Shown here: positions 18,422 through 64,000 of the stretch, piece by piece
Numbering within the stretch: position 1 is the first letter of the stretch
Layout: each line of letters starts with the position of its first letter
Origin: Microthyrium microscopicum
Lineage: Eukaryota
Length of the DNA stretch: 64,000 nucleotides
Direction: 5' to 3'
NCBI GenBank assembly: GCA_010405405.1
Contig: MU004235.1
Coordinates: 1,933,539-1,997,538 of the forward strand
Position numbers and translations under genes: made by a program
Notes under the pieces: model-generated
What the model was told of the DNA's origin: nothing
Seen by the model: only the letters and a program-made list of their open reading frames with translations
The model's database searches: none

Positions 18422-18755
18422 GATTCTCCTATGGAGCCTGACTGTGAAGTTTGAGATGTCAACGATAGTTGAGGGGAAGAAGAAAGTTATGGAGTCGTCA
18501 GTGGCTGAGGCTTTATAGAGGAGGCCCAATCTTAAGTGAGGTTTGGACAACGCTAACTCAAAAGTTCAGTTGATGCTTTCCTGAATCGTGACCATTGAGG
18601 GAATGCGCTACCGTTCTGGGCGAGTATACTCCATGACTCAGTTTTTGAGGTCTTTCCTAATATGATGATGTCGAGCGACGAGATTGCTTAATTCCGGAGG
18701 ATGAGTCTGGCGGTGTAGAGTGTTAGAGTAGTGCTAATTTTTTGACTTTTGATAA

Positions 18756-45756: not shown

Positions 45757-46985
45757 AATTTGCCGCTCCGTATAAAGTGCTCATACAAGAGGTGCCGCAA
45801 AGTCAGCCGAAGTATCGAAACGCAATTGCCCCAGTCAGTTCTATCGATAGTGTGAGGATTAATTGAAAAGTCCTACCAGCAGCTAGAATTTCATGGTGAT
45901 TCCTGGCAGGTGGTTTGATTCAAGTTTCTTGAAGTGCAGTTGAGCAGTGCAGAGGAGTTATGTATAAATAATTAGAGAGCCATGAATAATGGTCCTAGGT
46001 AGGGAATATTAATGACCTTGTCGGTCTGATTTGTTCTAGGGCTGCAACCGAACCAGATTGTCTCCTAATAGAATATAGCTCCTTCAAGCTTCGGATTCGA
46101 AGAGCATCCATTGCCCTTCCGCCCAATGGTAGTCTCCAGCAGAGCATAGCCAGTTGAATCATACAACAGGCCTCAGAGAATTCAGTATACATAACATGTG
46201 CATTGTTGGACTTTTGTAGGTCCAGTAGGTTATAGAACTATCTGAACGTTTGGTAGTGCGCCGCCTCATCCAGCCTTTGCGATATGTCACGTTACAATTC
46301 AGGTTTTTTCTAGCCAAAGCGGACAAAACTCAGTGTAGCCTGGGGCGCCGAATAGCGCGGGACATCTATCAGTTCTCAATGGCAACTCTCTAGGTAGCGC
46401 ATCTGCTCTTTCTGATTTACATCGTGACGAATATTCGCAAGAACACACGGTCGAAACCTCGGCCCTTGATATCGATTGTTGTTGTCCATTATGCAAGCCT
46501 GAGGTGTAAATCAGACAACCTAAGGTAAGTTAGGTAACGGCTGGTTGTCTCTGCGAGAATATCCTTCGACGTTTTGAAGTTTGTCCGCCCAAATGTTGCA
46601 GTGTAGTCGCAGTACAGCATTCAAGGTGTCAAGGGAGACCATCAATTAGGTTATATTAGTGAAAGTCTTTGCGTAGATACGGAATGGCGTTGATTTGCTC
46701 AAAACATCGTTAGTTCATTGCTTCTAAGATCAAAATCTACTTCGATAAGAAATAGAAAGAACTAGGCGGCTAGATTAGGTATCTAGATACCTGTTAGCAG
46801 CAAGCCTTAACGTGGGGCACACTTGACGCAATCAAATAGTAAATAGTATTTCCAGTTTCTAGTCGTCATACTGATGGTTCGGGATGAAGACTAACTTAAC
46901 GACAATATGATGCCACATCTTCTGCGATTAACATAAGCGTTGTCTGCAGGGACTAAGTATAGAAACGAAGCTACTCACTCAATCT

Positions 46986-47428
46986 CTACTTCTGGCTTCC
47001 CTGCTCCTCCTTTCTCTTCTTTTCTGCCGCTCTCAGATATGGACAGAGTAAGCTACAAAAGCTTTCCTGGCATAGCGGGCAATCTGGAATTTGTTAACGT
47101 AGAGTTTCAAAAAAATATGTTTAGGCCAAAAAGCGCTGAAATGAGTAGACAGTGCCAACTCAAGGTATTCTTACCTCGAGGCCAGGGTTTGGGTGCTTGC
47201 GGATCTATGAGCAGAGTTAGACAAGTCGCCTCATGCTGTTATAAGCTTCAGTTTACCGTCCAATTTGAAAGCCTCCTCCCAGTTCATAGATCTTAGCCCG
47301 TCTAACATGAGCTCCAGAAGCGTTGGCCCAGTGTGAGCGTCCGGCGCTTCGGAACATTGCGGCTGGACTCCAGCAGCGACTTGAATAACTTGGTACCCGG
47401 ATCGAGGGTTGTTCACGTTTCCGCTCAT
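46986..47428 (-). CDS. WPRxCPLC array unit A (intact, with an extra intron inside the motif)
   Basis: MSGNVNN...QCSEAPD...; introns 47205-47256 and 47084-47174; spliced PKPWPRDCPLCQESFCSLLCPYLRAAEKKRKEEQGSQK*. Confidence 0.75.
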
Positions 47429-47979
47429 CTTGCAAGGAACTGATGGACTAAATTTGAACTTGAAAGTTTGAAGTTGTGGATGGGCCAGAGGTGAGTAAGT
47501 TTGCGTCAATAGATTGGAGACGCGAGTGTTTATGTGTGGTAGTGAGCGAGAGAAGTTTTGGGGTAGATGATCAAGAGCGGATTCGAGGTTATTGTCACTG
47601 CGTTAAATTTATAGGTGACGATCAAACTACGCTAAGCTTCTTCTGAGTATAGCTCAGAGAAGAAGTCATTTGTCGAGGCTTCTATTCATCAAGAAAAGAA
47701 AGAACGATTTGACGTTAGTAAGGGCCAAAGTAGTAGGTAGAAGGTAGTATTTTGAGTGACAACTGCATGTACATTGGATGGAACCACAACAATAGTATAG
47801 AACCCAACCACTTTTGCTATCGCTACTTTTTGATTTGCTTACTTGCCTTCAAGCTTGGATACATGGAATTACATTATCTGTCTCGACCCAAGGAACAATC
47901 CCCGACGCCACAATTCAGTCGACTTCGATTGTAACAAGCGATGAGTAACGTAGACGGCAAGGAGTTCAGAACGCACTTT

Positions 47980-48354
47980 CTCTATCCCTTCTCTGGCTCT
48001 TCCCCTGTCTCTTCCTCTGGCACAAAGCTGGGCCACGACATATAGGTGTGGAGTTATATTTGAGGAACAATAGAGTAGCTAACGCATTGTGCCTAGCTCG
48101 CTTACAAGGCAAACGCGTCGCGTCAGACCACCCTATATACGCTCTTGGGCTAGTGGCTGTTGAATCGGTTTGGCATTTCGTCTCTCAGGCGGATCATATT
48201 GGATGGTGATCCATTCGCCATTGCGTTGAGTAGATACAACGATGGTCAGACTTTTGTGGAAATTGTGGAGACGTTGTTTGCGAGACGCGATTTCTGCCCC
48301 TGCTCTCGCAACACAGCACTCGCAGGGTGGTGGGGAGAAGATGGCCATTGGCAA
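47980..48354 (-). pseudogene. WPRxCPLC array unit B (highly decayed)
   Basis: TCGTGGCCC...TTGTGCCAG (WP..LCQ in different frames) followed by a purine-rich charged tail; GTAAGC donor near 48104; position fits the 1 kb spacing. Confidence 0.3.
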
Positions 48355-48832
48355 ACAGATGGAAGCAGGTAGTAGAGTAATGAGGTTTGCAGATGAATGT
48401 TTGCAGAGTTGAGAGATCTGAGAGGTTTGAGCGACTTGGAAGGTTTGGGAGGTTTGGGAGGTCTAAGCCCGGATTGCTTTGTACTGCTATGCTATGCCAC
48501 TTTGATGAAGGGTCAATAAGTGAAATATCGGAAGAGCAGGTGCTCAAACTTGAAAGTGAACACCGTAAATGTGAAAAGACAGAGGTTGGGAATCGCAGCT
48601 TTTAAAGTCATGAATGGGGAAAGGGGCGAGATGCCGTTAAGATACGGGCACGATTAATGGGCTGCGATATCGCCACCTTGAAAGAGGAGTTAAGGTTACA
48701 GAGACATCGTTTTCAAATTTGGGCGTAAGTGACTAGACAATTCGAGCTCAGTCGGAAATGAGGTGATGGTGCAATATCAACAGGTTCGGGGTCTTTCGCA
48801 CCACCTACATCAAGCAGATCACGATTGAGCTA

Positions 48833-49323
48833 TTAATTCTTCTCCCCATCATCTTCTACGAAATGCTGCTTGGCCTGCGGATCTTGAACCTCCTCTTGAC
48901 CTTGAGCCTCCCCTTGATCTTGAACCGCCTTCTGGTCTTGACTTGCCTCCTGGTCCTGGATGTCCTTCTGGCGCTTTATTGAGGCCTTCATGTATGGACA
49001 CAACAAATGACAGGCTCTTTCTTGACAGAGAGGACAATCACGAGGCCATGGCTTCGGTGCTTTTGGCTCTATGCGATTATCAGTCTCACCATGACATAAG
49101 GAAGTGAGGTCTACATACCCTGTGGTGAGTCATCTTGCATTTGGGTCTCTTCGTACGCCGAACAGTATCGAAATAGCCAGGACGATGAGCCGGTATTTGG
49201 AGGAGCATGGTAGGCAATGCAGCTTGACTCGAGATAACTCATCTGCAACATTAGGTCTTGTAGGCTAGTAGCGTGTGAGGCCGGTTCCGCTGCTGGTACG
49301 TAATTTGTGGAGGACGACGACAT
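48833..49323 (-). CDS. WPRxCPLC array unit C (intact)
   Basis: MSSSSTNY...RYCSAY...; phase-1 intron; EPKAPKPWPRDCPLCQERACHLLCPYMK plus QDQxxx repeats. Confidence 0.75.
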
Positions 49324-49507
49324 GATTCTTCCAAAGAAGCCTTTGCGGGTTGCAGCTTTGAAGTGGTCGCGGGCGATGCAATTTTTCTGCAAGGAATCTG
49401 AGAGAAATGAACGCACGTAATGGTAAGTAAAACAAGTTGCAAAGTGGATGTTAAAGACTTTGAACGAGGAGAAGCTCTGTTGTTTTAAGCTCGATTGAAT
49501 CTATACT

Positions 49508-49598
49508 GTGGTGAAATATGCTGGTAGTGAAATTTGCTGGTGGTGAAATATGCTGGTAGTGAAATATGCTGGTGGTGAAATATGCTGGTGGTGAAATG
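49508..49598. repeat. 16-bp minisatellite GTGAAATATGCTGGT(A/G), about 5.5 copies
   Basis: Direct reading; lies upstream of unit C. Confidence 0.9.
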
Positions 49599-49774
49599 TC
49601 AGACTGCACCGGGTCTAACTTCTTCAAGAAACCTGAGGTACAACTAAGTTTCAGGATGGAGGTGTCGTTTTAACATATCACATAGGCCGAACTCGTTAAG
49701 GAGCAACAGCTTCGCCATGCCCATCTCTACTCATCATCCTATATATGTGTTCTTAAATGTTGCATTTATCGGCA

Positions 49775-50221
49775 TTACCTGGGCCGCTCTATGACGACTT
49801 TAGATGGGGACACCAGCAGCTGCAGTATCGCTTTTGGCCGAGCAGGCACCCACGATGCCATGTCTTAGACTGCTCTGCCTCTACATATCTCTCAATGCAT
49901 TTGTAGCACGCAAAGCGTCAGGATGACCGTACTCTTTGGCTCTATTTATGAGAAAACCAAATTTTCGGACTGCTCATCCGGGGCAATAGAACATTGGGCG
50001 CTATGGGGAGAAGTACTTCATGACCAGAATTGAGAGGATCATTGCATCATTGGTGGTACCGCGCCCTTGAGACAATCAAGCAGGAAATTGGCGTCGCTTT
50101 TTACGCTCATCTCAAATTCGATTACGGCAACCTGTGAGCAAAAGTTGATTGCAAGGCTGTGAATGTTCTTCAGGGCGCTCAGACTCGTGCCAGAAGAACT
50201 CACACACTCCTCGCTGGCCAT
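49775..50221 (-). pseudogene. WPRxCPLC array unit D (stops, eroded motif)
   Basis: MASEEC... stop at 50039; QCSIAPD; phase-1 intron; KTWHRGCLLGQKRYCSCWCPHLK. Confidence 0.6.
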
Positions 50222-50662
50222 TTGTACGCTCGGTCGGACTGGCAGGGACGTCGCGAGCTTGGCCAATAGGAAATAGATGGTTCGTGAGTATATAATAGAC
50301 GCTTCCGAACATGCCGGCTATCTGTTTCAAAAGTCTGTCGAGAAACAGGAAGGTATTAGGTTTCTGATGTAGGTTCTGGCGCAGTTGTACTAGAGGCTAG
50401 GCACGTTACATAGCAAGATTCAGTATGAGACGGGTATTGAAGCAATTGATTATCAACAATGACCATAGCTGGTCTCACAAAAGGCCGTAACCAAAGATCC
50501 GACGGCACTTGAAATTCCAACAGCAGACAAGAAAAATGTGGCTCCTCTGGACTTTGCTGCTCTGCTGCTTTGCTGCGCTAAGAAACGACTGTGTTTGCCA
50601 GAGCCTAAGAATACCTCAAAAGCAAACGCTCTGATCACGAGAAGCATGAAAACATCATCTCT

Positions 50663-51125
50663 TCAATATTTCCATTTGCCCTCGTTGAAAGCCTTCAGGT
50701 ATGGGCAGCGAAGGTCACAGAACTTTTCCTGACAAAGCGGGCATCCACGAGGCTATGGCTTTGCCTCGGATTTTGTCTTCGTCTGCGTCTCTGTTGGTTG
50801 GTTGTTAGCACCTCACGTGGAAAGGAGATTTCGTTGCCTTACCGTCTTCTTTGGGTGGCTCATTATATAGAAGAGCACCAAAACAGATGAATCGTGTGTT
50901 GGGACAAACAGCTGGAGCTTGTACTAGAGGTCGGAACGCTAATATGTCATACCTGCCGTTCGTCCACGAAGGAGGCCAACTTCGATAAACAATAGTGCTA
51001 GTACCGTAGACATCGCATACAATAAAGGCCCTTGGTGGGTTTAAGCCCGCACGAGGAGCCGTCAGGTGCAAAATCATTCTTGTGCGACGGGGCGTAAGGG
51101 GGAAGGAGAGATTGTTATGGGACAT
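50663..51125 (-). pseudogene. WPRxCPLC array unit E (single TAG in place of the invariant Trp)
   Basis: MSHNNL...FICFGA...; phase-1 intron; AKP*PRGCPLCQEKFCDLRCPYLK with TAG at 50753-50755. Confidence 0.7.
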
Positions 51126-51454
51126 TGCTGGAGGCAGATCGATTTCCGTATTTTGTGTCTAAACAGGTTCTAGACGGATGTATAACTGATGAGCAACAGT
51201 ATGGAGAAATGGGGTAATGGAAACTGAATAGTACGGGGGAGCTCAATAGTCAAGACAAGGTTGGGGTTCGACCGGTGGCCAAACAAACACAGCTAACATT
51301 AAATAGAAAGAACGACAGCTATGGGAGACAGCCCAACTTCTGGCTCTAAATCTAAAGCTCCTTCTATAATTTTCAGTCCTGGTCCAGAGATGCTCGAGCG
51401 CACAATTATTTCATCAGAACGCTAATCACAGCCACAACACCATTCAGCTCCGAC

Positions 51455-52017
51455 CTATGTCTGCCAGATCTCCTCCTTCCACTCTTCTTCCTGGGCCTGC
51501 TCCTCAGCCTTATTCTTGTTGGCCGTCTTCAACTACGGGCACAGCAAGTGGCAATAACGGTCTGGCATAAAGGACAATCACGAGGCCAGGGCTTGCCCTC
51601 TTGGATACAGTCAGCACAGGTAGGTATGTAAGTAGTTAAACAAGACTTCTCTATTTTCACACCTTTCTTCTCGACCTCTTTGATCTCCTCGGCAGCTGGC
51701 ATAAGCTCAGAGAGCTCACAAAGTCCTCCTGCCTGCAAAGGTATCGAAGACCAAGCCCACACGCTAGCGATATTGACCTCTTGGCCATCGTCATATTGTG
51801 CGCGCCTGAGTTTTGTTGACATAGAAACGCCCCGTAAAGCACATGATGCATATATTTGCTCTCAGGTCCAGCGCAAGTCCAAGGCTACTTCAATGCTGTA
51901 ACGAGTGTATGGGGCAGACATATGTTGTGGAGGGTCTGGAGGTGGTCGAATATGTGGCGGTGGAAAGAAAGGTGCAGCACAGGGCGCGAAGCCTCGCGGC
52001 AGGAAGCTGCCGTTCAT
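51455..52017 (-). pseudogene. WPRxCPLC array unit F (frameshift and stop)
   Basis: Phase-1 intron; GKPWPRDCPLCQ, then a frameshift to RYCHLLCP*LK. Confidence 0.7.
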
Positions 52018-52385
52018 TTTTGTCGAGGAATAGTCTGATTAATAATGACAGCTTTTATCCCTGACGCGGAATGCTGAAGGAAGTGGTGAGCTTTTGAACG
52101 GGAACGTACGTGCGAAGGCAGGAAGGTGATAGTACGTATTTCGAAGAGCGGGTCGTTGTGAAGAATAGCAATATGTAAGTAGGTGCTATGGGTAAATGGC
52201 TGGAAGGAGTTGAAAAACATTCCGGTGGCAGCTACATTCCTCTTTCTGTGTCCAAGTGCAAGTGCAAGTGAAATGGCAGGAGCGGCCATAAATCTGGAAA
52301 ATCCTTTGTAGCCGTTGACGAGATGTATCGATTTCGCTCTCATTTTCTTCGCCAGAGACTCGCAACCGGTCCATCGTTCGCAGAC

Positions 52386-52993
52386 TCACTTCTTATCCTT
52401 CTTTCCATTATCTGCCTTTAGATATGGGCAGCGGAGGTCGCAGAAACGGTCTTGACAGAGTGGACACCCTCGTGGCCAAATCTCTATCTCTTTCTTTGGC
52501 TCTTCTGTAGATCGTTAGTCCGGAAATATTAGAACAGTCGAACTCGCGTACCAAGCCTCACCACATCGAGTGGCAGATCCGGCCAAGCTATCATATAAGA
52601 CCATTCTGGCCACTCTGCAGAGCATTGAAACCAGCGTGGAAGATCATAGGCACAACAAAGTGGAAATCCCACATGATCGTAAGCAGTTCGACCTGGGAAA
52701 CCATTTGGATCTGTCCACCTAAAGATGGTAATATCTCGCAATAGGTTGCCATTTGAATTGTCGTACATAGCCTCTTTCAACCGCTTTGCTCGGGCCTGTA
52801 TTTGTTGCAGCTGCTTGGTTGTAGGAGTATAAGGTCTCGGTAGGTTATGGGTATAACTGTCATATGGAAGACCAGCATAGTTACAGAAATCGTCTACCTG
52901 ACCGACAGCGAGGTTCCAGGCCATGCGAATTTGGTTTTCATTCATGCTAGATTCTGGCTGGTCCTTATTTTGCCTTTTATCAGTGGTATTCAT
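52386..52993 (-). CDS. WPRxCPLC array unit G (intact)
   Basis: MNTTDK...WFQCSAEWP...; phase-1 intron; EIEIWPRGCPLCQDRFCDLRCPYLKADNGKKDKK*. Confidence 0.78.
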
Positions 52994-53249
52994 CTCGAAA
53001 GAGGAGGATGGAAGTTGATGAAGAAAAAAGAACTTCAAGCTGTAGAAATTTATTGATAGGAACTACCGTCCTTGCAAGCGGGTATTTGAGTTTGCTCGGA
53101 GGAAGGTTTCAAAAACTTTGAAAGACTGAACAAGCTAAGCAGAAAGTAAGTGAGTGAAAAGTGGGAAAAAGGTGACTTATTGCAAGGTGCTGTCAAGATA
53201 ATTGAAGGTGAGGCGCAATGAAAGCTTCTTTGATTCTTATGTCTAAGGT

Positions 53250-53952
53250 TTACTTGTTTCCTCCGGTTTTGAGCCGCTTCATCTCATCTTCCTGCCTTTT
53301 CGAGGTCTTTAGTTACGAACGCAGAAAATAGCGGAAATGGACCTGACACAGCGGGCAATTTCGAGGCCATGGCTTCTCTTGCCCATCTGGAAATACATTA
53401 GCAAGTTGACTTGGATGCGAAATACGTTTCGCATACACTTGTCTTCTTTCTGATCAACATCCTCGAGATACCAATGATATATATTTGGCCGTCCATGTCG
53501 CTCTGCGAATTTGCGCGAGGAAGGCTGAGAATCGAGGGTAAGGAGACAACGATGCTCCGAGTCGTAAACTCGTCCCAAGCTCGCCACCAAATTCATCATT
53601 TTGGTCCGCCTAGTAAAGATTACTCCAGCTAACAGGTAGATGTCCGGGGCATCTCCTCGCCCGCTTCTGTCTACTGCCACACTTAGGTTTGCATGGTCCG
53701 AAGCTCTTGTAGAGTAGGGACATGAGAAGGGCCAAATTAGTAGGCAACAGGATCGTCAGGAAGGTCAATGTCATGAACGAGCTGTGCCATTTGGTGTGTA
53801 GCGCGAAGCCATGCAGAGCGGATCAGCTCAACTAGTTCGGGACAGGTCGTATTATGGAAGACGATGGGACTGCTATTCTTTTCAAGTGGTGGATATGGAG
53901 CGTGGCGGCAAGGGTAGATACGTCTGTAAGGATCAGTGATGATTGTAGGCAT
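53250..53952 (-). pseudogene. WPRxCPLC array unit H (multiple stops)
   Basis: MPTIITD...; several TAA/TAG stops in exon 1; EKPWPRNCPLCQVHFRYFLRS*LK. Confidence 0.7.
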
Positions 53953-54344
53953 TTTGGTTCCGGGAACTGGATTGAGATGGATATACTTCGAGGAGGGGGT
54001 TTTCCGGCAGTTGAAGGAAAAGATGGATAGATTTGGAAAAAGGGTTCGCAGTTGGAGGAAAGTGTTGACAGATAGAGCAGCGTGTTGATGAAGTTTATGT
54101 TGTCTCGAGTAGGCCACGGACAAAAAAGGAGCAAAAGAGGTCGCGGTTGAGGAATCCGCATCACGGTAGGCATGAGTAGACGATGAGATATCAGTGTACA
54201 AGAGATTCGAGGTAAAACAAGCGACACGAGAACTTCCAAAGCTCGATCTGGATTTGAGTTGGTTTTATTCTAACACAATGTGACCTCTAGACAATCAACC
54301 CTGGCCATGACAGATTCCCAGAGGAAAGAAGCCCATAACGTGGC

Positions 54345-54977
54345 TTACTCGCGCTTCAATCGCTTTTCTTCCTCCGCCTTCTTCAAGTAAGGACACAGCA
54401 GATGACATAACGACTCTTGGCAAAGAGGACAATCGCGAGGCCATGGTTTTTCTGCCTTCTCTGACCCGTAGTTAGCAATGCAGTGGTAAGGTAACAATAA
54501 GCTTAACATACCAGTCGGTACCAATGGAGTCGGCTTTTGAATGTGGTGTTCATCGCGAATATGTGCTGGAAGAGGCCCAGCCCAATACGCGCTCACAGTC
54601 TTCTCGGAGCAGGTATAACCATGCGTGTTCACATACATCACTGGTCGACGATTCCTATCCAAAATTGTCGTACCAAGAGGGCTGCGTCGAAGCAGCGCCG
54701 AGAAAGTGACGCCAGGGTTCTGAGCGACGTTGCATTCCATCAGCTGTTGTAGTCTAGCTTCAAGGTTGTTGAGGTCATCGATAGTTGGCTTGAACAGAGG
54801 CGCTTGAGCAACTCGAGGGACGTGGCCGAAACCAAGGCCTGTCATTATTTGTCCTATTCGACCCATTGCGATACCATACATTTTGGCGATGTGCGCGTTG
54901 ACCTGCGCTTCATTCTGTTCGTCGGTCTGCGCAGATGATGGCTCGCTTTTCGCTGCTGTCTGGTTGGCGCTTTCCAT
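54345..54977 (-). CDS. WPRxCPLC array unit I (intact)
   Basis: MESANQ...YTCSEK...; in-frame phase-1 intron; EKPWPRDCPLCQESLCHLLCPYLKKAEEEKRLKRE*. Confidence 0.82.
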   Translation of the reverse strand: MESANQTAAKSEPSSAQTDEQNEAQVNAHIAKMYGIAMGRIGQIMTGLGFGHVPRVAQAPLFKPTIDDLNNLEARLQQLMECNVAQNPGVTFSALLRRSPLGTTILDRNRRPVMYVNTHGYTCSEKTVSAYWAGPLPAHIRDEHHIQKPTPLVPTGMLSLLLPYHCIANYGSEKAEKPWPRDCPLCQESLCHLLCPYLKKAEEEKRLKRE

Positions 54978-55234
54978 GATGAACGAAGGGATGGATGCGA
55001 CTGGCACGAACGTGAGGTATGAAAGTCAATTCAACGTCGTGGTTGAATGAACTTGCTTCGGTCAGGAAGTTGTCGAAGGTAAGGATCAAGAATTGCAAAA
55101 GTCATGAACGAAATAACAGAGCAAGGTATAGGGATTACTCCGGGTGAAATAGCTCGGAGTGGTGGAGATACGCCACTTATTCTACCTAAACAGGAACCTG
55201 AAAAGACACCTACCAACTTCTAGTCCCCGTAATA

Positions 55235-55896
55235 TCACGATAGGATCCGATCCGAGATGTCGCCCTCATTTAAAGTATGTTCCAGGTGCCTCTGTGGATC
55301 TCGTTCGAGCACCCTTAGCTTTTCCTTCTCAGCCTTCTTCAGATAAGGACACAAGATGTGACAGGGACTCGTCTGGCATAATGGACAGTTTCGAGGCCAC
55401 GGCTTATCGACATCTCCTAGAAAGTTTTATATTTTCCGAGCATGAAGCTGGGCTGAACATACCACTTGACATGGATCGAGGAAACACGTTGTGCTTGAGT
55501 TCACTGATTCGTGCTGCTGGAGGAAGGCCATCGAAGCAAACCAGGTGGAGCGTCAGAGCATCTATATCCTCTCGTGTTGACGTGCAAGATTGGATGACCC
55601 ATTCGATCAAACACTGTCAGACCAGATTGGCCAGAGGAGATGTTTAGATGGAAAGGTTCATCAGGGCGTTGAGCGGTATTTGCATCCCGCAATCGCTTCA
55701 CGCGACGCTGCATGGAGCGCAAGTGTTTGATTGTAGGCGTGGGCGCAGTATTGTGGTTATAAATGACAGTGCCGCCGATGGTCGCGAAGATTTCGGTCAG
55801 CTCACGTACTGCGGCATCGTACATATCCTGAATTTGCGCGGCAGTGAGTTGTGGAGATGTCTCTTCAGTTTCTTGCCCTTGATTTTTGGCTTCCAT
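55235..55896 (-). pseudogene. WPRxCPLC array unit J (apparent single frameshift near 55545)
   Basis: MEAKNQ...YRCSDAP; continuation CFDGLPPAARISE... is in another frame; DKPWPRNCPLCQTSPCHILCPYLKKAEKEK. Confidence 0.7.
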
Positions 55897-56336
55897 TTTG
55901 GCTTGAGGATTGGTTGCGGGTATTGAAGAGGCGAACATTACAATTTGGAGCAATGCACATGTGAGTAGTCCGAACATGTTTTATACTAGTACAAGTTTAT
56001 TGCCGCCTCGAGAGTTTCACATAGCTTGAACAGTAGGTTACGGGGACAAGAGACTGCATAGACTCTAGAGAACAGGTTGCGTAGAAAAGGCTTAGCTAGG
56101 CGATTATAAAGCTAATAATAGGTAAAAACGTAGCTTAAGGGTAGTCGAGGTTAAGGCATACAAAGTGAAGAGATGAATTCTCTACCTTGCGCTAATTTCA
56201 ACAAGATCCGCTAACGCCATCCGTAACCTCGACATCGAGTCCCTAGCTTCTCAAAATATAACCTCGAAGGCGCATAACTAAGCCTCAATGGCGAGTAGAA
56301 CTAACGAAATATCTTTCTGTTACAAAAGGGTACAAG

Positions 56337-56992
56337 TTAAAGTCTCTGCCGCTTCACTTGTCGTTCCTCTTCGGCTCTTCTCAAGTACGGGCACAATAAG
56401 GAGCAGAAGCTCGTCTGACAAAGGGGACAATCCCGCGGCCATGGCTTTTGCTCTGCTTTTGTCTAAGAGTCAGCATGATGTTGATAACAGTGCACACTTG
56501 TTGTGATATACCTTTTTCTTCCGGCAATACTGTTTCAGGTACTTCAAGAGATTCTGCGGGTTCGGGATTCTGATCGTGGATTGGGTATTCCGAGCAACGG
56601 ATTACTCCTTGTCGCAACAATCTCCGGCGGTATCGTGCGCGCGCTGTACGGATATTGGTCTGTATCCGGTGTTCCTCAGAGTTGCGGCTATTCATTCGCC
56701 TTTGGAATGCTTCAGACTGCTCTCGAATTTGCTTGTATATTCCATCAAGTCGGCTGTGCAACCGTTCTAAAAGCTCCGGTTGGCCGGCGCCTCCATTTAT
56801 TGCGAGATGAATATCCGCTCTGAGGAAGAGTTCTTTCATTAGTTCGCGGTTGTTGGCATGATCTAAATTCTGTTGAGTTCGAATGGTAGCCAGTCTTGCC
56901 AGGAGATGGGGAGGTGGCGCAAAAGGTGGCGCAAAAGGTGGCGCAAAAGGTGGCGCAAAAGGTGGCGCAGCTTGGCCGTTGTTGTTACTCAT
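56337..56992 (-). CDS. WPRxCPLC array unit K (intact, N-terminal APPF repeats)
   Basis: MSNNNGQA(APPF)4...IRCSEYP...; phase-1 intron; QKPWPRDCPLCQTSFCSLLCPYLRRAEEERQVKRQRL*. Confidence 0.78.
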
Positions 56993-57387
56993 TCTGAGAC
57001 TTATAAGCGATCAAGATGATTTTGAAGAGCAAAGAATTGGCGCTTTGTTGTGAACAGAAAAAGTCTTTACTTATTTCTTGTAGAAGGGAGATTAAATCAA
57101 AGGTACAATATTTCACAGGAGTTCAGTCACTTTTATGTCAGCGCCACAACCTCAACCAAGGTTGACATCTACCAAATATCGAGATACCGACACTTTAACC
57201 AGTCAAAAATAGATAAACGAAGTTTGTTTGATTATGGTATCTTTTCTTATTCAATGACGAGCAGACGCTCGAATATTACGCCTTTTAAGGCAAACAACCT
57301 ATCCGCTCAAGACGTTGCAAATAGTGACATTATACCCAGATGGAGCGCCCTCCCCCATCCAAAATGTCAACCCTTTACATCTTCATG

Positions 57388-57999
57388 CTACTCACCCGGC
57401 TTCATTTGCGCTCTAAGGTAAGGGCACAAGGGGTGGCAGAAGCTTACCTGGCAAAGCGGACATCCACGAGGCCATTGTCGCTCCACCGCCACCGTGTCTC
57501 CTGAGGAGTTGTTAGCACAACTATACCCTGCAGTATTGAAAGCATAGATACCTTCAGCGTCTATTCCTATCCGAGCAATAGCACGAGTCGTATGTTTCGG
57601 CCGCTCTGAACAACGAGCTGCACGATTTCGATTGCCTCGTACCGGGGCACGTAATTGTTGGTTCAATGCAGTTATTTGTCGCAAGTTGGCTCTCAGTTGG
57701 TCGAGCTCTGCCCTTATCTCATCGGTGTCCCCCGCTGTGTCTTCGGTTCTCGCGTGAGTAGTTCGGATGTTCGCGGGCGTTGTGATTAGACGCGCTGAGT
57801 TTGCCTGGGCGTGCGCTCGGGGGGGAGTTATTCGTGAGTTGTCGGACTGAGAAAGCTGGTGTAGTTGATGCTCAAACTGCGTCAAATCGTGGGAGACTGA
57901 GCGAGAACCTGTCAGCACCAGTGCTTTGTGGTCTTCAAATTCTGATTCTATCAAATTGTCGTTGCGAAGTGTCAGCTTGGAAATAATGTAACGGAACAT
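57388..57999 (-). CDS. WPRxCPLC array unit L (intact)
   Basis: MFRYII...ARCSERP...; in-frame intron; RQWPRGCPLCQVSFCHPLCPYLRAQMKPGE*. Confidence 0.8.
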   Translation of the reverse strand: MFRYIISKLTLRNDNLIESEFEDHKALVLTGSRSVSHDLTQFEHQLHQLSQSDNSRITPPRAHAQANSARLITTPANIRTTHARTEDTAGDTDEIRAELDQLRANLRQITALNQQLRAPVRGNRNRAARCSERPKHTTRAIARIGIDAEGIYAFNTAGYSCANNSSGDTVAVERQWPRGCPLCQVSFCHPLCPYLRAQMKPGE

Positions 58000-58295
58000 G
58001 GCTGTAAGACGTGGATGCTCGTGGATAATAAGTGGGAATTTGGATGATCAAGGAGGAATTGGGTTTGGAGTGGGAGACAAATATTCCAGTGTTGTGGTAC
58101 CGGTGTGTTGGTGGAAAATGATGCTGTGAAATTGGCTACCTGTGACCTAATCCATGCAGGGGTGTTGAGGAAGTTGTCAAGATGAGGAAAGAGCGAAAGT
58201 CACCAAGCTTACTGAGGTCGTTGTACAATCTTCTATTTCGATCTATTAAGCAGCAATATGTATCGGCAGATTTTTCTGGAAAACAGAAAGTCGAT

Positions 58296-59601
58296 CTACT
58301 GCAAGTCCATTAAGCTCATTTTCACTTGCAGAGCCTCCTTCTCCTCAGGCAAGGATTTGTCGGCAGAAGAGTGCTCCTGAGTTGAACCTTCTCCCTCGCC
58401 CTTAGATTCATCTCCCAATGAAAGATCTCGCAAGTCCAAGATTGTATCGCCACAGGAAGCTTCCTCGCTATCAAGACTGTTCTGTACAGAAGATTCATGC
58501 TTGTTGAGTGTGTGCTCCCGAATGGTGTCGTCGTCGTCGTCAGAAAGGTCGTTTCGCGCATTTGACGCAGCTTTTTCGCACATCACTTTGGCAATGAAGC
58601 TCTCTAGAAACCCGATTTTCCACGGACAGGCACTAGAAAGAGCTTCCTTGGCTATCTTGGCCTTCTTGCTTAATTTGTCCTTCTCCATCAGCTCGGCGTT
58701 TTTGGTCAGCTCGGACTTCTTGATTAACTCAGTCTCTTTTTCTTTGTTCGCACGCTTCAAGCAAGGACATCGCAAGTCGCAGAACCGCTCTTGGCACAAC
58801 GGACAGCCTCGAGGCCAGATTTCGATCTTTGACGTCTCCTTTTCCTCCTCGTCATGGTGGTTCTCTACGTAGGTTTAGTTATTGAAAAGTTTGTAAGAAT
58901 TAGCCAGGCTTACCAGTTTGAGATGGCGATGGCGATTCATACACGGGCATCCCGGCGACAATACCAGCGAAATTACCAGCGACATAATCAGCGATCGCAG
59001 GATTCCAAGAACACCAGAGGCCCGCACGCTGTAGCCTAAGGACCATGCGAGGTGTTGTATTCTCATCCACATAATCTAGCACTGCAGCCAAAAGTGGGCC
59101 AGGAGGGGGAAGCCATGGATTTGGGTGGAGGGCATGGAAGTTTGCATGCACTTGTCGCCGCTGAGCAATGCGGTCGAAGCCAAGAATGCCTTCAAATGCA
59201 CTCAATTGAACCCTAAGAGGATATCTGCGGTTGGTCTGCTCTTCAAGTTGTCGGCGCTGGGCTTCCGAGCCCCTAGCAAGATGGTACAAAAACGCAGCTG
59301 TACTCATTGTCTTGGTCAAAGATTTGACTTCCTGATCCGGATCACCATATCGCCGGAAGTCGTCATAATAGCGAGAGCCTAGATAAGCTTTGTTTCGATA
59401 AGTCCCCATCCGGGATACGGCAGAAGGAGGTGGACGATGAAGCTCTGGTATTTTGGCGCGGGGATCTGCAAATCGCTGGCGCATGTTATAGGGATCGTTG
59501 AGAGAAATTTCCAGCCGATTGAGTATTGTATTATAGTAGTAGGTTTTGAGTTGGCGCTCGAACCACCCACATTCAGCGTTGTAGTACCATTTCTTCATCA
59601 T
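58296..59601 (-). CDS. WPRxCPLC array unit M (intact, long exon 1 and long acidic tail)
   Basis: MMKKWYY...LWCSWNP...; intron about 58868-58913; KIEIWPRGCPLCQERFCDLRCPCLKR plus about 150 aa of K/E/D/S-rich tail. Confidence 0.78.
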
Positions 59602-60245
59602 GAATGATAGTCAACAATTCAGCTTGCAGTGGCGATATAGTACGACAGTCGCGACTCTGAAGAGGTAAATAGGAGGATACGACGGATGGATGTTGGATTG
59701 TGGTCAAGTTATAGGTTTAAGATCTCGTGGAGCTTTAAAGGCAAAAGATTCCAACATTCGCTGGTAGAGGTGATAGTCAAAATACAAAAGGCGACTAGTT
59801 TATTTCACTCTTTTTGAGGTCGTTAAAGTGACCAATCTAACCTCAAATTCCTGTTCGTGAGGTCATGGCTAATATGTCTTATCTATCTGCAAATGGGGTA
59901 AGACAAAGCGAGAATCGGGCTCATGAATGCTCGAAATTCAAGAAATAGATCGCATCCTCCGCAGAAATCATAATTGATAAGCAGATATGCAAATGGACTC
60001 CTTCCCAAAGGACTTGTTAGCAGATTGCAGTTCACGCTGGCCGTCACACTCAATATAATCATGATGTTTGTTTTGCCAAAGTATTTCATTTTATACCCAT
60101 CGTGAAATTGAAAACATGTCTGGCTCTCAGGCGCAAGTACTATCTGAATTCAAGCTTTTGGTCGTCACCCCTTGGGCCTTCGCTTCCTCTAATATTAGAC
60201 TGTCTCCTCTTCTTTCAACAGAAAGGTGCCGATTCAAGTCGCATC

Positions 60246-60916
60246 TCAGTGAGAACCGGAGCCGTCATCAGCTGTATCCCGCTTTCGCTTCAAGCTCTTC
60301 TCGGATGCTCTCAAGTAAGGGCAGAGTAGACTACAAAATTTAGTCTGACAGAGCGGACAACCACGAGGCCATGCTGCTTCTGGCTTCTCCACTGGCAAGA
60401 GTCAGCATTATATAACACCACCGTTATCATGTGGAGCTTTCACATACCTTTAGGTTCGGGTTCTGCTGGTGATCTATCGAAAGCCCGGTTGCATACTCTA
60501 GGGCGCGGATACGCGGAACAACGATGAGCAGGCAAGACATGTCGTGCTCGATGATGAAGACGAACGAGACGAGCTGCTATCGGAAGTTGAAGGGCCGGGC
60601 GTTGGCGGCCAGGAGGTCCTCGACGGGAGCCCGTGCGTGTCGCGATCGGGAGCTGTCGTGGACGCAGCTGGTCGTGAATCATAGGTTGTTGAATCTTTGG
60701 AGGCGGAGCCTGCTGCATATCGGCGGATGGCTGTGCTGCTGGTGGCGGAGGAGGCTGCATCAAGGGGTTTTGGTTTTGGGATTGCGCGTTATACCAACGC
60801 CAAGTGGAAGACCAATGCACGGGGTGTACTGGATCAGTACTCGTGTATACTGGAATTGGTTGACCTTGTGCGTGGTTATTGGAGCTATTAGTATTGTTTC
60901 CGTCGCTGTTGTTCAT
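60246..60916 (-). CDS. WPRxCPLC array unit N (intact)
   Basis: MNNSDG...HRCSAYP...; phase-1 intron; AAWPRGCPLCQTKFCSLLCPYLRASEKSLKRKR. Confidence 0.78.
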
Positions 60917-61424
60917 CGCTACAGTGTTGTGTCGCTACAACACAGGCAGGACTGAGATGCAACACACCAGGATCTGTTCGGAGACGATCTGATCGCCGTA
61001 GAACCTGATCGAGTGACTAATATGATGCGTCAAGAATCTCAGAAGGAGCAATTTAGACAATGATGCGGATGGGTCGTGTAGAATCAGGTTATGATACAGA
61101 CGATGAAGCTAGGATTGTGATTTGGAGGTTCTTGAGGAGAGTACAAGTAAGAGAGTCGCATGGACAGCTGAAGTATAGAGATAAGCCACAGCCTTGATGT
61201 AGCAGTGACCTTATGTTTGAGGTGAAAATCAAAGCGCCTTTCTGATATAAGTCTAATCAGTTATCCAGATCCAACACCTCAAACTTCCTGCATTCGTCCA
61301 CAGTTCTTCTGCGCGCCTTCAAATAGAGTTACAATAGTGCCAACATGGTTGTAGCCGCGGAAGAACAAGAAGTGGCCTTGAAGCAACAACGGATGGAGTC
61401 TAACCCGCAGAGAATTTCTGTCAT

Positions 61425-61934
61425 TTAGACATCCTCTGCCTGTTTCTTTTCCTTCTCCGCTGCCTTCAGGTAAGGGCACATTAGATGGCAGTATTTGTCC
61501 TGGCATAACGGGCAGTTTCGAGGCCATGGCTTGTCAACTGTTGCATCTGACCGCTTGTATCAACATAGACATCTTTAATACTCGAGTCTAAAGTACATAC
61601 CCTTCAGTTCTGGAACCTCCTCTGCTGCTGTCACTATCCTACTCTGGAACATGTCGTAAAAGGAGCAAGGAAGAGTTATCTGGCCAGCCCGAACGCGTGC
61701 AATAATTTGCCAAAATTCGGGAGTGGTTGGACGGCGATAGCCTGTCGCGGTAACATACGCCTCTTCAGACAAATAAAACTGGAGGTCAAAGACTTCCCAG
61801 TACAGCAGTTGAATATCATCCGGCGAGAAACCGGTGGGAGGTGGCCAAACTCCTTCGAACTTTTTTCGGATACCTCCTATGGCGACGTAGACAGGTTGGC
61901 TACGGCGATCATTGATGCTGCTAGTGCGTTGCAT
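61425..61934 (-). CDS. WPRxCPLC array unit O (intact)
   Basis: MQRTSS...LPCSFY...; phase-1 intron; DKPWPRNCPLCQDKYCHLMCPYLKAAEKEKKQAEDV*. Confidence 0.78.
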
Positions 61935-62654
61935 TGTGTCGACTGATAGCAGAGACAGGCTCGTGTATTTTTGATTACAAGGTTAGGATGCTGTGAGAAT
62001 TACGACTGGTGTGAGCCTATTGGTTTATGATCGCAATGGAGCGGAAGCAGATCCTGATACAAAGTTTCGTTCGGGTTTTATAAGAGAAACCATCACACAT
62101 CTTACAGCACCAGTTACAGCTTCCTGTATCGCTTAGTTTTGACATAAAGAGCAAATGGTCACGCCAATTCTGTTTCTAGCTATATCTTTAAAGGGAGCCA
62201 TATCTTCAATAAGTTACAAGTGTCTTACTCAAATATATTATCAGATCATTCTTACATTTCGCAGTGATGACCTTTGTGGGCCAGGGGCCAATAGACAGAG
62301 GGAGAGAGAGATGCAGTAGGATATGTTCTTCAGCGTTGGGACGATTCATTCTTCACCGCTGATGTAACTGCGAGCATCGTCATGATTTTGCGAGATATGC
62401 GTTCTTAACTTTCTGCATCGCCTGGTTTGCTTTCTTGGTCGCCGTTGTACAGGGGCCTACTTTAGTATATAACCTGATGTAAGTGTGGAATCGATATTTA
62501 AGATCACAAGACTTTTGCCATAACTGCATCTTGGCAAGATGAAAGTGATAAGAGTCAATGATAATGACAAGCTATATTGGGTCAGTAAGAGAGCATCAGC
62601 TCAAGATGTGGCGAATATCTGTCTTGTATGTACTGAGAAGGCATAGTGCTCCAC

Positions 62655-63229
62655 TACTGACCCATCCTCTGCGCTATAGTTTCTTCTTTTCCCCTTCGAA
62701 GTTTCCCGTTTTCCCCTTTCTCTTCAAAAGGCGGGCTTGACGAAGGTACACAGAAGCAGCAATGGTGATCTTCACAAAGGGTTCACCTGGCTGCGGCTTT
62801 AACTCCTCCACTCTAGCACTTCTGTCACTATGGACTTGCCTTCACGACAAATGTAGATACCTATCCTTCTTCGTTTGGCTTCATGGTCGGGGGCTCGAGC
62901 TTGGGGTTCACTTGGAAACTTCCATCTGGTAAAAAGACCCCATATGGCTTGAAAAGCTCCTTTACCAACTGAGACATGCTCGGTGCGTCAGAACATAAGA
63001 ATGTGCCCACCGGGGGCATGCGAAGAGGGGGAATAGGATGAACCCTCGCAGGCAAAGTCTTGCCGGGGTTGTTCTGCATATACACATGTTCGCAGGTGTT
63101 CCAGATTACCTGACATATTTCAATATGTCTAGGCAGTACTACCCGTAATGGGGCAACCGCTGGTTGCTGAAACCGCTGTTGGTTTTGGCTGGGAGTTTGG
63201 CTTGAGTTTTGTGCTGGTAGAGCCGACAT
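62655..63229 (-). pseudogene. WPRxCPLC array unit P (exon 1 open, motif exon eroded)
   Basis: MSALPAQ...FLCSDAP...; TAG just before the GTATCT donor; exon-2 remnant KPQP...PL*...LLCTFVK. Confidence 0.55.
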
Positions 63230-63290
63230 GTTCGCTGGTGTTGCAGTGTGGTCTGAAAGAGCTTTGCAAGAGATTTGCTCCAGAGACGAC

Positions 63291-63358
63291 TGTCAATGTC
63301 AGTCCTTGGGTTCGAGATGTAAATTGTCAATGTCGGTCCTTGGGTTCGAGATGTAAAT
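63291..63358. repeat. 34-bp direct tandem duplication upstream of unit P
   Basis: TGTCAATGTC(A/G)GTCCTTGGGTTCGAGATGTAAAT x2, adjacent to a TATA-like element. Confidence 0.9.
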
Positions 63359-63809
63359 TATATAAAGAACGTCGAGGATGAGATCTATTCTCAAGATGCT
63401 AAATACCCGAGTACTGTGAAGTTACCTACTGAGTTTCAGTGAATAGATATACCAAAAGCGGGTAGGTGGACAGGCTAGAAGAAACTGATGAGTGACCACA
63501 TGAAGTCACTATTCCCGCTGGATATTTGGTGCGAAATGTTTGTTACTTTAATATTATAGATGAAGACAACATCTGAGGTAGATGAAATGCTTTGAAGAGA
63601 GGTACGTAAGCGCTAAGAAGGCGTTTCATGACTCTCATTTTTATTCCCGAATCCAGTAACGTTGACAAATGACTCGTGAGATCCTCTCATCAATCCCTTT
63701 TGTGTAGCTACCACGCTGAAGGACATTGACCTCAAACTCTGCGCCGTCTCATTTCTAGCTAGTAGCGACTAAGTATTCAAGTACGTTGCGTCGTTGTTCG
63801 AAGGCTCTG

Positions 63810-64000
63810 TTACTTGTGTTCGTCCTCCTCTTCGTCGACAGGTTCCAGCTCATCAATCTTTCTCTTCAGCTTAGCCTGTCTTTTGCCCTCAGCCTTAAGA
63901 TACGGACACAGCAAGCTACAAAAGCGATCTTGGCACAGAGGGCAACCGCGTGGCCAAGGCTTGTCCTCTAGGAAACATGGTTAGATCAAATTCTAATGCT
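63810..64000 (-). CDS. WPRxCPLC array unit Q (last exon; gene continues beyond the window)
   Basis: Acceptor TTCCTAG then EDKPWPRGCPLCQDRFCSLLCPYLKAEGKRQAKLKRKIDE...*. Confidence 0.75.

Follow-up and report, generated by a model that had tools for sequence, protein, structure and literature searches.

A tandem array of Cys-motif genes in Microthyrium microscopicum, with a candidate metal-binding block

Lineage-specific tandem arrays of small, fast-evolving fungal genes are exemplified by the MSDIN toxin precursors of Amanita and the wtf drivers of fission yeast. The array described here, in a 64-kb window (the whole stretch of DNA analysed), is like these in its clustered paralogues with conserved and divergent parts, its interspersed pseudogenes and its confinement to a single lineage. 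It has no sequence relation to them, and what it conserves is a five-Cys signature at the C-terminal end; TM helices, present in wtf products, are absent from its own, which also greatly exceed MSDIN precursors in length; and its copies are old (51-74% DNA identity even within the motif), not recently amplified.

A second set of comparisons concerns the spacing of the cysteines in the conserved block, C-x2-C-x4-C-x3-C-P. This is the spacing of a published [4Fe-4S] motif that occurs in proteins of the NfnB / glutamate-synthase-small-subunit type and in some 2[4Fe-4S] ferredoxin subtypes (PMC6405883, PMC11430716). As the motif is given there, the four-Cys spacing is identical, with Pro after the last Cys and Arg just upstream; the Arg is shifted by one residue, however, and no Fer4 Pfam model reaches its cut-off. 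The array proteins also differ in lacking a second cluster motif or helical ferredoxin-like domain, and in being short, predicted to be disordered and confined to one fungus. The same spacing, CX2CX4CX3C, is called a 'zinc finger-like motif' beside a basic stretch in the carlavirus cysteine-rich nucleic-acid-binding protein (PMC5179071); in the array, too, a basic or charged stretch adjoins the motif. The CCHC zinc knuckle (zf-CCHC) likewise has four ligands in 13-14 residues, the first three with the same spacing as in the array, but the array motif has Cys instead of His as the third ligand, a last gap of 3 and not 4, no Gly in the turns, and Pro after the first and last Cys; zf-CCHC matched 0 of 10 peptides. 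Unlike both the CCHC and the carlavirus motifs, it has no viral or element context.

Motif searches and three-frame translation place 17 co-oriented units on the minus strand between 46986 and 64000. They share a C-terminal block, W-P-R-x-C-P-L-C-Q-x3-C-x3-C-P-Y-L-[KR], followed by a K/E-rich tail. A strict regular expression for this block gave ten matches, all ten on the minus strand (48989-63956); the rest of the 64 kb contained no match. A position matrix trained on those ten gave 15 matches above a cut-off of 12 bits, again all on the minus strand (47093-63956), with none on the plus strand and none in 1-46900. A DNA profile (nhmmer) recovered the same 15 (E <= 1.4e-9) and added a further, weak match, the sixteenth (47844-47911, E 0.0013); the seventeenth motif, a frameshifted remnant at ~62650-62800, was seen by eye only, in the three-frame translation. 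The string 'WPR' occurs 26 times in six frames (9.35 in shuffles), 13 of them on the array's minus strand. This set corresponds one to one with units A-Q of the first-pass annotation, whose division into ten intact units (A, C, G, I, K, L, M, N, O, Q) and seven disrupted ones (B, D, E, F, H, J, P) holds as well. The array leaves the window, as had been stated: the intron and first exon of unit Q lie past 64000, and at least five further paralogues are found beyond the window. The units are as follows; Cys-Ser positions are those of the Cys codon, Trp positions those of the motif Trp codon.

Unit A (U47), 46986..47428, minus strand: intact, 99 aa, three exons (47257-47428, 47175-47204, 46986-47083); Cys-Ser 47356; spliced window equals P0013 letter for letter
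Unit B (U48), 47844..47911, minus strand: decayed motif remnant with in-frame stop (nhmmer E 0.0013, translation)
Unit C (U49), 48833..49323, minus strand: intact, 146 aa; intron 49069-49118 (50 nt, phase 1), skipped by an X1 contig; Trp 49048; Cys-Ser 49164; equals P0002
Unit D (U49b), 49792..49866, minus strand: pseudogene; motif WHRGCLLGQKRYCSCWCPHLK, second Cys lost (matrix 31 bits, nhmmer E 1.4e-9)
Unit E (U50), 50682..50762, minus strand: pseudogene; TAG replaces the Trp codon (50755), motif otherwise intact (matrix, nhmmer, translation)
Unit F (U51), 51515..51595, minus strand: pseudogene; frame lost past C-P-L-C-Q, stop at the Tyr codon (matrix, nhmmer)
Unit G (U52), 52386..52993, minus strand: intact, 186 aa; predicted intron 52505-52551 (47 nt, phase 1); Trp 52478; Cys-Ser 52624; spliced window equals P0001 residues 1-186
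Unit H (U53), 53297..53377, minus strand: pseudogene; third and fourth Cys to Arg, Pro to Ser, stop at the Tyr codon (matrix, nhmmer); first-exon ORF 53737-54264, minus strand, joined to unit I in P0005
Unit I (U54), 54345..54977, minus strand: intact, 193 aa; predicted intron 54461-54511 (51 nt, phase 1); Trp 54443; Cys-Ser 54611; spliced window equals P0005 residues 1-193
Unit J (U55), 55235..55980, minus strand: disrupted; exon 2 (55235-55416) and intron signals (55417-55462) intact on sequence reading; exon 1 frameshift between Cys-Ser (55560) and donor (sequence and frames)
Unit K (U56), 56337..56992, minus strand: intact, 199 aa; intron 56456-56511 (56 nt, phase 1), skipped by an X1 contig; Trp 56441; Cys-Ser 56596
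Unit L (U57), 57388..57999, minus strand: intact, 186 aa; intron 57501-57551 (51 nt, phase 1), skipped by a 1237-nt X1 contig; Trp 57474; Cys-Ser 57612; equals P0010
Unit M (U58), 58296..59598, minus strand: intact, 417 aa; intron 58865-58913 (49 nt, phase 1), skipped by an X1 contig; Trp 58817; Cys-Ser 59013; equals P0003; longest N-terminus of all units, 152-residue tail, motif Tyr replaced by Cys
Unit N (U60), 60246..60916, minus strand: intact, 204 aa; intron 60392-60447 (56 nt, phase 1), skipped by an X1 contig; Trp 60371; Cys-Ser 60520; no deposited protein found
Unit O (U61), 61425..61934, minus strand: intact, 151 aa; predicted intron 61547-61600 (54 nt, phase 1); Trp 61526; Cys-Ser 61667; equals P0007
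Unit P (U62), 62650..63292, minus strand: pseudogene; motif remnant ~62650-62800 across two frames, missed by nhmmer; first-exon ORF 62861-63292 with Cys-Ser 62995 (frames, translation)
Unit Q (U63), 63810..64000, minus strand: exon 2 63810-63967, Trp 63956; P0011 residues 57-108 map here

The second exons are small, and gene callers readily overlook them.

The phase-1 GT-AG intron reported upstream of the motif stands: all introns checked are phase 1, and contigs of one public run (X1) skip five of them exactly (49069-49118, 56456-56511, 57501-57551, 58865-58913 and 60392-60447). A sixth X1 contig matches 63529-63969, breaks at the unit Q acceptor and continues with 255 letters absent from the window; transcription and splicing are thus seen in at least six units, the transcript basis being this single run, with contigs on six of the ten intact units. 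The contigs are unit-sized (0.5-1.2 kb), and each unit would give one short spliced mRNA. Spliced at these sites, the window reproduces five deposited proteins letter for letter (P0013, P0002, P0010, P0003, P0007) and the leading residues of two fused models: P0001, which joins units F and G, and P0005, which joins the unit H ORF to unit I. Because several units are transcribed and spliced, this is a real new protein family.

Conservation acts on the protein and is not that of a DNA repeat, which supports the reading of the first-pass annotation as a gene family. The 11 invariant residues other than Trp are each encoded by 2-5 synonymous codons; the proportion of differences is 0.92 at synonymous and 0.18 at non-synonymous sites (45 pairs); at the nucleotide level the motif has an identity of 0.67, which falls to about 0.25-0.32 in intron, tail and flanks. 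The DNA repeated between units is the motif stretch alone (35-93 nt), and a repeat search of the region found no terminal or long repeats. The array region also holds two short local tandem repeats, its sole other repeats. Compared pairwise, the motif DNA of 11 units is 51-74% identical throughout, from which the copies are judged to be old and without homogenisation; with seven decayed copies among 17, the birth-and-death evolution proposed earlier is borne out. In ten units the first exon has stayed open over 68-229 codons and the motif is perfect, although synonymous sites are saturated; since these sites are saturated, fast neutral drift of disordered N-termini fits the data as well as diversifying selection does. 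The role in recognition, allorecognition, defence or drive suggested by the first-pass annotation is conjecture on these data.

The first exons had been called mostly unalignable, and the constant module had been assigned to exon 2. Neither statement holds entirely. A Cys-Ser dipeptide stands in exon 1, 22-53 residues upstream of the Trp, in 14 of 15 models, and in all 11 readable first exons of the window, where its codons are TGT or TGC plus all four TCN; the first exons of units G, I and J can be aligned with one another. Exactly five Cys are present in 8 of 15 proteins. With homologous N-termini that include a fifth conserved Cys, the constant part extends beyond exon 2. This fifth Cys is new here, as are the at least five paralogues past the window and, in unit A alone, an additional phase-1 intron (47084-47174) that interrupts the motif directly after W-P-R. 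The lesions listed for unit H likewise go further than its earlier description as disrupted.

The products are predicted to be small (about 100-420 aa), soluble and largely disordered. No member has a hydrophobic N-terminus, and no 19-residue window exceeds 1.27 on the Kyte-Doolittle scale, in agreement with the earlier statement that signal peptides and TM helices are lacking. AF2 gives a mean pLDDT of 61.9, with 68-77 in the motif; exon 2 by itself (69.2) is modelled as coil across the Cys block and helix at residues 22-40. That is, the Cys block has middling confidence and no defined secondary structure.

One way to understand the array, to which we give about an even chance, is as an old family in tandem whose Cys block chelates a metal and docks on a common partner, while the N-termini are free. 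Only three features would then be constrained: an open first exon, the Cys-Ser, and the W-P-R...[KR] block with its helical K/E-rich tail. Four close thiols, possibly with the fifth, would chelate a metal and so fold the block into a tiny knuckle; in the simplest case the ligand would be a single Zn ion, in a site sized like that of a retroviral zinc knuckle. Knuckle and charged helix would dock every paralogue on the one partner, protein or nucleic acid, leaving the N-terminal part to drift or specialise. Both the metal and the docking are read from the Cys spacing only; our best guess is that Zn is more likely than Fe-S. Against this reading, no zinc-finger or Fe-S model reaches its Pfam cut-off, the Cys block is modelled with middling confidence, and part of the intact units have no contig in X1.

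A second perspective supposes that the block binds an iron-sulfur cluster, through the C-x2-C-x4-C cysteines and a remote one (that of the exon-1 Cys-Ser or of a second chain, as in NfnB-type and some 2[4Fe-4S] ferredoxin motifs), in small redox or cluster-carrying proteins. We consider this unlikely. The Cys spacing matches exactly, as does the Pro that follows the last Cys, and a fifth conserved Cys does lie at a distance; the best sub-threshold Pfam match by E-value, in one of the ten peptides, is to the 4Fe-4S dicluster model Fer4_17 (E 0.021; 15.8 bits, cut-off 22.2). Yet in the other nine no Fer4 model is matched with the threshold relaxed to E <= 10; a second cluster motif is lacking, and proteins predicted to be mostly disordered are unlike ferredoxin folds; a large, fast-diverging paralogue array would be unusual for electron carriers.

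A third possibility, which we hold to be quite improbable, dispenses with the metal: W-x3-C-P-x-C would be a redox-active dithiol or disulfide staple, serving thiol-disulfide exchange or oxidation-dependent folding. An aromatic residue before C-P-x-C recalls the active-site turn of thioredoxin-fold proteins, and one of the ten peptides has a weak Redoxin match over exactly this stretch (E 0.062; 13.5 bits, cut-off 26.6). Against this, there is no thioredoxin fold, no strand being predicted and the constrained part spanning ~21 residues; no signal peptide would bring the products into an oxidising compartment; and four invariant Cys plus a fifth are more than a single CxxC dithiol requires.

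Very unlikely is the proposal that the units are not stand-alone cellular proteins but modified-peptide precursors or remnants of a mobile element with a Gag-like knuckle. The genes are indeed small and clustered, with one part conserved and one variable, and their Cys spacing is close to that of the retroviral knuckle, C-x2-C-x4-H-x4-C; but they have neither signal peptides nor repeated cores, domains of tailoring enzymes, reverse transcriptases, integrases or transposases are absent both from the units and from the 46 kb upstream, and the repeat and zf-CCHC results above also speak against it. An annotation artefact, or a relic in decay that no longer has a function, is a barely credible reading of the array and largely refuted here: seven of 17 units are broken, two deposited models merge neighbours and X1 gave no contig on four of the intact ten (among them A, G and O), but ten units keep open first exons and a perfect motif at saturated synonymous sites, six show splicing as predicted (five exact joints and one acceptor end), and Cys-Ser is retained with varied codons.

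The family was described earlier as unrecognised and lineage-specific; both descriptions survive, the second within the collections covered. No named domain or transposon was matched (Pfam, repeat search), and Pfam, PDB sequences, fold searches, one metagenome scan and the literature gave no relative. So far the family is seen in Microthyrium microscopicum only, no relative being detectable elsewhere by sequence; its absence from other fungi is based on predicted proteins and the metagenome scan, not on genomic DNA of fungi. Among 1.84 billion representatives, a profile search gave 13 true matches; all ten that carry names are from M. microscopicum, on one 2.5-Mb contig, and the annotated copies stand there as "hypothetical proteins".

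The array holds 17 two-exon gene copies (units A to Q), all on the minus strand, and they belong to an expressed, spliced tandem family of small soluble proteins in which only five cysteines and their immediate neighbours are frozen. Four of the five lie in the second exon, in the motif W-P-R-x-C-P-L-C-Q-x3-C-x3-C-P-Y-L-[KR], which a K/E-rich tail follows. A strict pattern for this motif gave 10 matches, all on the minus strand of the array and none elsewhere in the 64 kb. A matrix built from those ten found 15 copies on the minus strand, from 47093 to 63956, and drew a blank both on the plus strand and across the first 46.9 kb; a DNA profile recovered the same 15 at E <= 1.4e-9 and added a decayed sixteenth at 47844-47911. 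The seventeenth is a frameshifted remnant at about 62650-62800, after a first-exon-like ORF. Pattern, matrix, DNA profile and translation together match the 17 units of the first-pass annotation one to one, and its estimate of about ten intact copies (A, C, G, I, K, L, M, N, O and Q) and about seven disrupted ones stands as well. The disrupted copies are broken in different ways:

Unit B, minus strand: motif remnant
Unit D, minus strand: second Cys lost
Unit E, minus strand: Trp codon reads TAG
Unit F, minus strand: frame lost, and a stop at the Tyr codon
Unit H, minus strand: two Cys-to-Arg changes and a stop
Unit J, minus strand: frameshift in exon 1
Unit P, minus strand: frameshifts

The inactivating change in unit E, TGG to TAG at 50755 (minus strand), is on the other strand a C-to-T change in a CpA context, the type made by repeat-induced point mutation (RIP); as a single site among copies now too diverged for RIP, it is recorded as a remark only.

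An intron of 47-56 nt, with a fungal, GTATGT-like donor, a CTAAC-like branch site and an AG acceptor, precedes every readable motif, always after the first base of a codon (phase 1) and 3-15 codons ahead of the Trp; in unit A the motif is itself interrupted, right behind W-P-R, by another phase-1 intron, of 91 nt. Splicing the window at the predicted sites gives, letter by letter, the deposited family proteins P0013 (unit A), P0002 (C), P0003 (M), P0007 (O) and P0010 (L), and also residues 1-186 of P0001 and 1-193 of P0005. In both of these last two deposited models neighbours have been run together, in P0001 the intact unit G with F's broken motif (51515-52993, minus strand) and in P0005 the intact unit I with the first-exon ORF belonging to pseudogene H (53737-54977, minus strand). 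Unit N (60246-60916), spliced in sequenced contigs, matched no deposited protein in the protein searches. The present annotation of the family is 'hypothetical' and partly mis-modelled, with two neighbour fusions and one unit lacking a deposited protein.

Evidence of transcription comes from X1, a single public sequencing run kept as contigs and labelled RNA only by guess, no run being on record as RNA. It contains 35% of the words sampled from a 10-kb stretch. Nine of its contigs align to 46500-64000, with no mismatches listed, and skip the introns 49069-49118, 56456-56511, 57501-57551, 58865-58913 and 60392-60447, all GT..AG on the minus strand; one contig stops at the unit Q acceptor and continues for 255 letters that lie outside the window and read as the end of the first exon of the deposited protein P0011. 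Contigs of DNA would not skip GT..AG introns, so X1 is taken to be cDNA-derived; on that footing transcription and the predicted splicing hold for units C, K, L, M, N and Q, the five introns being skipped exactly and the unit Q contig ending at its acceptor. The contigs are 0.5-1.2 kb long, roughly one unit apiece. Those six units are covered; the lack of a contig over A, B, D (which a low-depth bin may touch), E-J, O and P says nothing about their expression. The contig over unit L (56940-58227) runs on as far as the opening codons of unit K, which starts at 56992; transcripts of neighbours therefore meet or share about 50 nt (56940-56992), as judged from contigs, not single molecules.

One way to account for a recurring motif of this size is as a DNA repeat, in which case its conservation should show no synonymous bias. 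The first-pass annotation had raised this point against itself, and the codons point to protein constraint instead. Residues invariant across the ten intact motifs are encoded by 3-4 codons for Pro, 4 for Arg, 5 for Leu and both for Cys and Gln; synonymous differences amount to 0.92 vs 0.18 for non-synonymous ones (uncorrected proportions, 45 pairs, 21 codons), and synonymous sites are saturated in the family. Aligned without gaps, the motifs share 0.67 of their nucleotides, against 0.32 for the tail, 0.28 for the final 45 nt of the intron and 0.25 for sequence lying further away; the only direct repeats between units are motif stretches of 35-93 nt with 60-86% identity. Motif DNA identity lies between 51 and 74% whichever two units are compared, which means that the copies are old and that homogenisation is not at work.

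The first exons tell a different part of the story. They were initially described as mostly unalignable, which is fair, as only 5 of 120 pairs of N-terminal parts reach BLASTP E <= 0.002 (three of the five among units G, I and J); they are nevertheless homologous, sharing a Cys-Ser dipeptide that precedes the Trp by 22-53 residues in 14 of 15 models, usually as x-C-S-[EDA]-x-P. The one model without it is 86 residues long and may lack the first exon. All 11 first exons that can be read in the window have the dipeptide, its Cys encoded by TGT or TGC and its Ser by each of the four TCN codons; the family signature is therefore C-S-x(20-51)-W-P-R-x-C-P-L-C-Q-x3-C-x3-C-P-Y-L-[KR]. Eight of the 15 proteins have exactly five cysteines. 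First exons of 68-229 codons have stayed open in ten units, an argument that exon 1 is translated and in some form needed. The proteins range from 86 to 417 aa, and no member has a hydrophobic N-terminus, in keeping with the original remark that signal peptides are not evident. A conserved coiled coil before the Cys-Ser was considered and rejected as a family feature, as a heptad scan beat shuffles (<= 1 of 300) in only 1 of 15 members. K[KR]x[KR] is present in 9 of 16 tails, indistinguishable from the chance expectation for a Lys-rich tail, so it is not read as a nuclear import signal. The N-terminus of unit K (56900-56990, minus strand) carries a four-fold A-P-P-F peptide repeat (PPFAPPFAPPFAPPFAPP) that is absent from all other units.

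The family appears to be narrowly distributed. Run against 5.8 billion word-indexed proteins, the exon-2 profile returned 10 matches, all named 'hypothetical protein BT63DRAFT_...', all from Microthyrium microscopicum and all on one contig of 2,506,003 bases. A HMMER pass over 1.84 billion representatives gave 15 matches at E <= 0.001, of which 13 are this family and the other two unrelated repeat proteins with weak multi-stretch matching. A full-length alignment search of the word-indexed proteins found three family members and nothing else among the matches listed, and residues 1-230 of P0003 found P0003 itself only among the matches listed. In metagenomes (241 million records, pattern scan) nine loci passed tblastn, all short chance matches in high-GC or unrelated frames; both motif halves together were found in none of the nine. 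Eight of the 13 members are encoded within the window. The other five (P0004, P0006, P0008, P0009 and P0012) have no counterpart there above 76% identity; they therefore lie elsewhere on that contig, and the array continues beyond 64000, its copy number there being taken from deposited proteins only. The profile search thus bears out the lineage-specific reading in predicted-protein collections, with 13 members, the named ones all from one species. Confinement to this fungus is suggested, short of proof, because the collections hold predicted proteins and metagenome contigs, not fungal genome DNA. With co-oriented units, 7 of 17 broken, motifs 51-74% identical and named members all from one species, this is a tandem lineage-specific family under birth-and-death evolution.

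Comparison with known domains and folds leaves the family without relatives. No Pfam model reached its cut-off on 13 exon translations or on 10 exon-2 peptides searched at E <= 10, and the exon-2 profile had no match at E <= 10 among PDB sequences, so that the label 'unrecognised family' is retained. Structural searches agree: Foldseek with the exon-2 model found nothing in the PDB at E <= 10; VIA-align against 48161 chains gave a best Z of 3.0 and none at 5, all of it helix-like noise; and the ESM Atlas, queried with P0004 and P0003, gave no usable feature match, its structure rows all at TM <= 0.29. The AF2 model of P0010 (mean pLDDT 61.9) has one confident helix, at residues 89-117, with the motif at 68-77; exon 2 alone (pLDDT 69.2) is modelled as coil across the Cys block and helix from Pro-Tyr-Leu on. 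Full-text searches of the literature, covering main texts, turned up nothing on this family. It is new as a family; the phenomenon, a lineage-specific tandem array with a Cys motif under birth-and-death evolution, is a variant of something known in fungi.

What the conserved block does is approached by likeness. The retroviral CCHC knuckle is close in size to the Cys block, and its ligand pattern (zf-CCHC, PF00098) is C-x2-C-x4-H-x4-C. The motif departs from that pattern, reading C-x2-C-x4-C-x3-C in 10 of 10 intact copies, and the zf-CCHC model matches 0 of 10 exon-2 peptides at E <= 10. A published 'zinc finger-like motif', CX2CX4CX3C, in a cysteine-rich nucleic-acid-binding protein of carlaviruses does have the spacing of the family, and it too lies beside a basic stretch (PMC5179071). 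A metal-binding plug, in which zinc is likelier than an Fe-S cluster, is a reading of the module in which we place about even trust. The thiols would bind the metal and fold the Cys block into a minimal knuckle; knuckle and following charged helix could then form a common docking or nucleic-acid-binding element, held constant while the disordered N-terminus varies. A predicted homodimer with Zn scored 0.02 (mark 0.32), which weighs neither for nor against.

That the module holds an Fe-S cluster specifically is unlikely, although the spacing invites it. An excerpt on NfnB gives its [4Fe-4S] motif as RCx2Cx4Cx3CPV (PMC6405883), and part of a second paper has some 2[4Fe-4S] ferredoxin subtypes beginning CX2CX4CX3C (PMC11430716); as far as these excerpts go, the family is like the NfnB type in having that spacing followed by Pro in 10 of 10 intact copies. 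The remote fifth Cys, that of Cys-Ser (14 of 15 models), would be a candidate for a further ligand, and no second C-x2-C-x2-C-x3-C motif is present. One of ten peptides reached 15.8 bits with Fer4_17 (cut-off 22.2); the other nine matched no Fer4 model. Judged by sequence, the Fe-S and zinc-knuckle resemblances are probably likeness of spacing, not membership.

A redox or disulfide role is quite improbable. The thioredoxin fold is built of about 100 residues around a CxxC turn, whereas the AF2 models of the family have no strands and a Cys block in coil; a single peptide of the ten matched Redoxin (PF08534), at 13.5 bits where the cut-off is 26.6. That the units are peptide precursors or a mobile-element remnant is very improbable. 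Fungal ribosomal-peptide precursors have a signal peptide and repeated cores (Kex2-type), or are 35-residue MSDIN-type precursors, and lie beside tailoring enzymes; here there is no hydrophobic N-terminus, lengths are 86-417 aa, and tailoring-enzyme domains are found in none of 23 neighbouring ORFs (window side only). For a transposable or retro-element, the exons lack element Pfam domains and the units lack terminal repeats. An array with no function, though 7 of its 17 units are broken, is scarcely credible.

A further perspective builds on the metal-binding plug. The array might be a new class of intracellular adaptor, in which a long-unchanged five-Cys plug (Zn or Fe-S), itself a new minimal metal-binding fold, links a single cellular machine to disordered N-termini that number in the dozens and diversify freely; the whole would serve recognition or genetic conflict as a repertoire, for instance in allorecognition, in spore killing or drive, or in defending against mycoviruses or mobile elements. 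This full reading is distinctly unlikely. The array's shape is the one thing here that speaks for the recognition or conflict role first suggested. The first-pass annotation stands, and is sharpened, in what it observed, and its interpretation is supported in part.

The family is an unusually clean orphan: it has more than 20 copies and saturated synonymous sites, yet a 21-residue block and a distant Cys-Ser are frozen. What chiefly makes follow-up worthwhile is the tiny size and sharp definition of the conserved module, which can be tested directly; a peptide of 30-50 residues should suffice for metal analysis and structure work. It offers a test case for the origin and persistence of new protein modules in fungi, and for the contribution of disordered, fast-diverging N-termini. 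Should the plug prove to be a novel metal site, or to dock on a partner common to the paralogues, a domain family would be added and perhaps a repertoire-type system, both of them new; failing that, a well-documented lineage-specific family is still in hand.

The surroundings are those of an ordinary ascomycete chromosome in composition and gene content, with GC of 0.42-0.50 throughout the window and no AT-rich block. Rfam families are absent from 46000-64000, and no promoter word of 7-8 nt is common to six or more units upstream of the starts, a weak test in which 3 of 10 start coordinates were wrong. Direct repeats in 46500-64000 comprise the motif stretch, a 16-nt microsatellite (about 6-7 tandem copies at 49492-49613, between units C and D) and one adjacent 34-nt duplication (63291-63358, 97% identical), just upstream of the first-exon ORF of pseudogene P. 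Domains in neighbouring ORFs are MFS transporters, a Zn2Cys6 factor, 2EXR/DUF7730 (three ORFs), PRP39, GH7, GH72, Mnd1, a sugar transporter and an F-box. The F-box ORF (PF00646, E 5.2e-7; 45004-45780, minus strand) adjoins the array at its low-coordinate end and shares its strand. The three ORFs with 2EXR and/or DUF7730 (13995-14948, 17447-18340 and 18756-19661) form a second small tandem family at 13995-19661, also on the minus strand.
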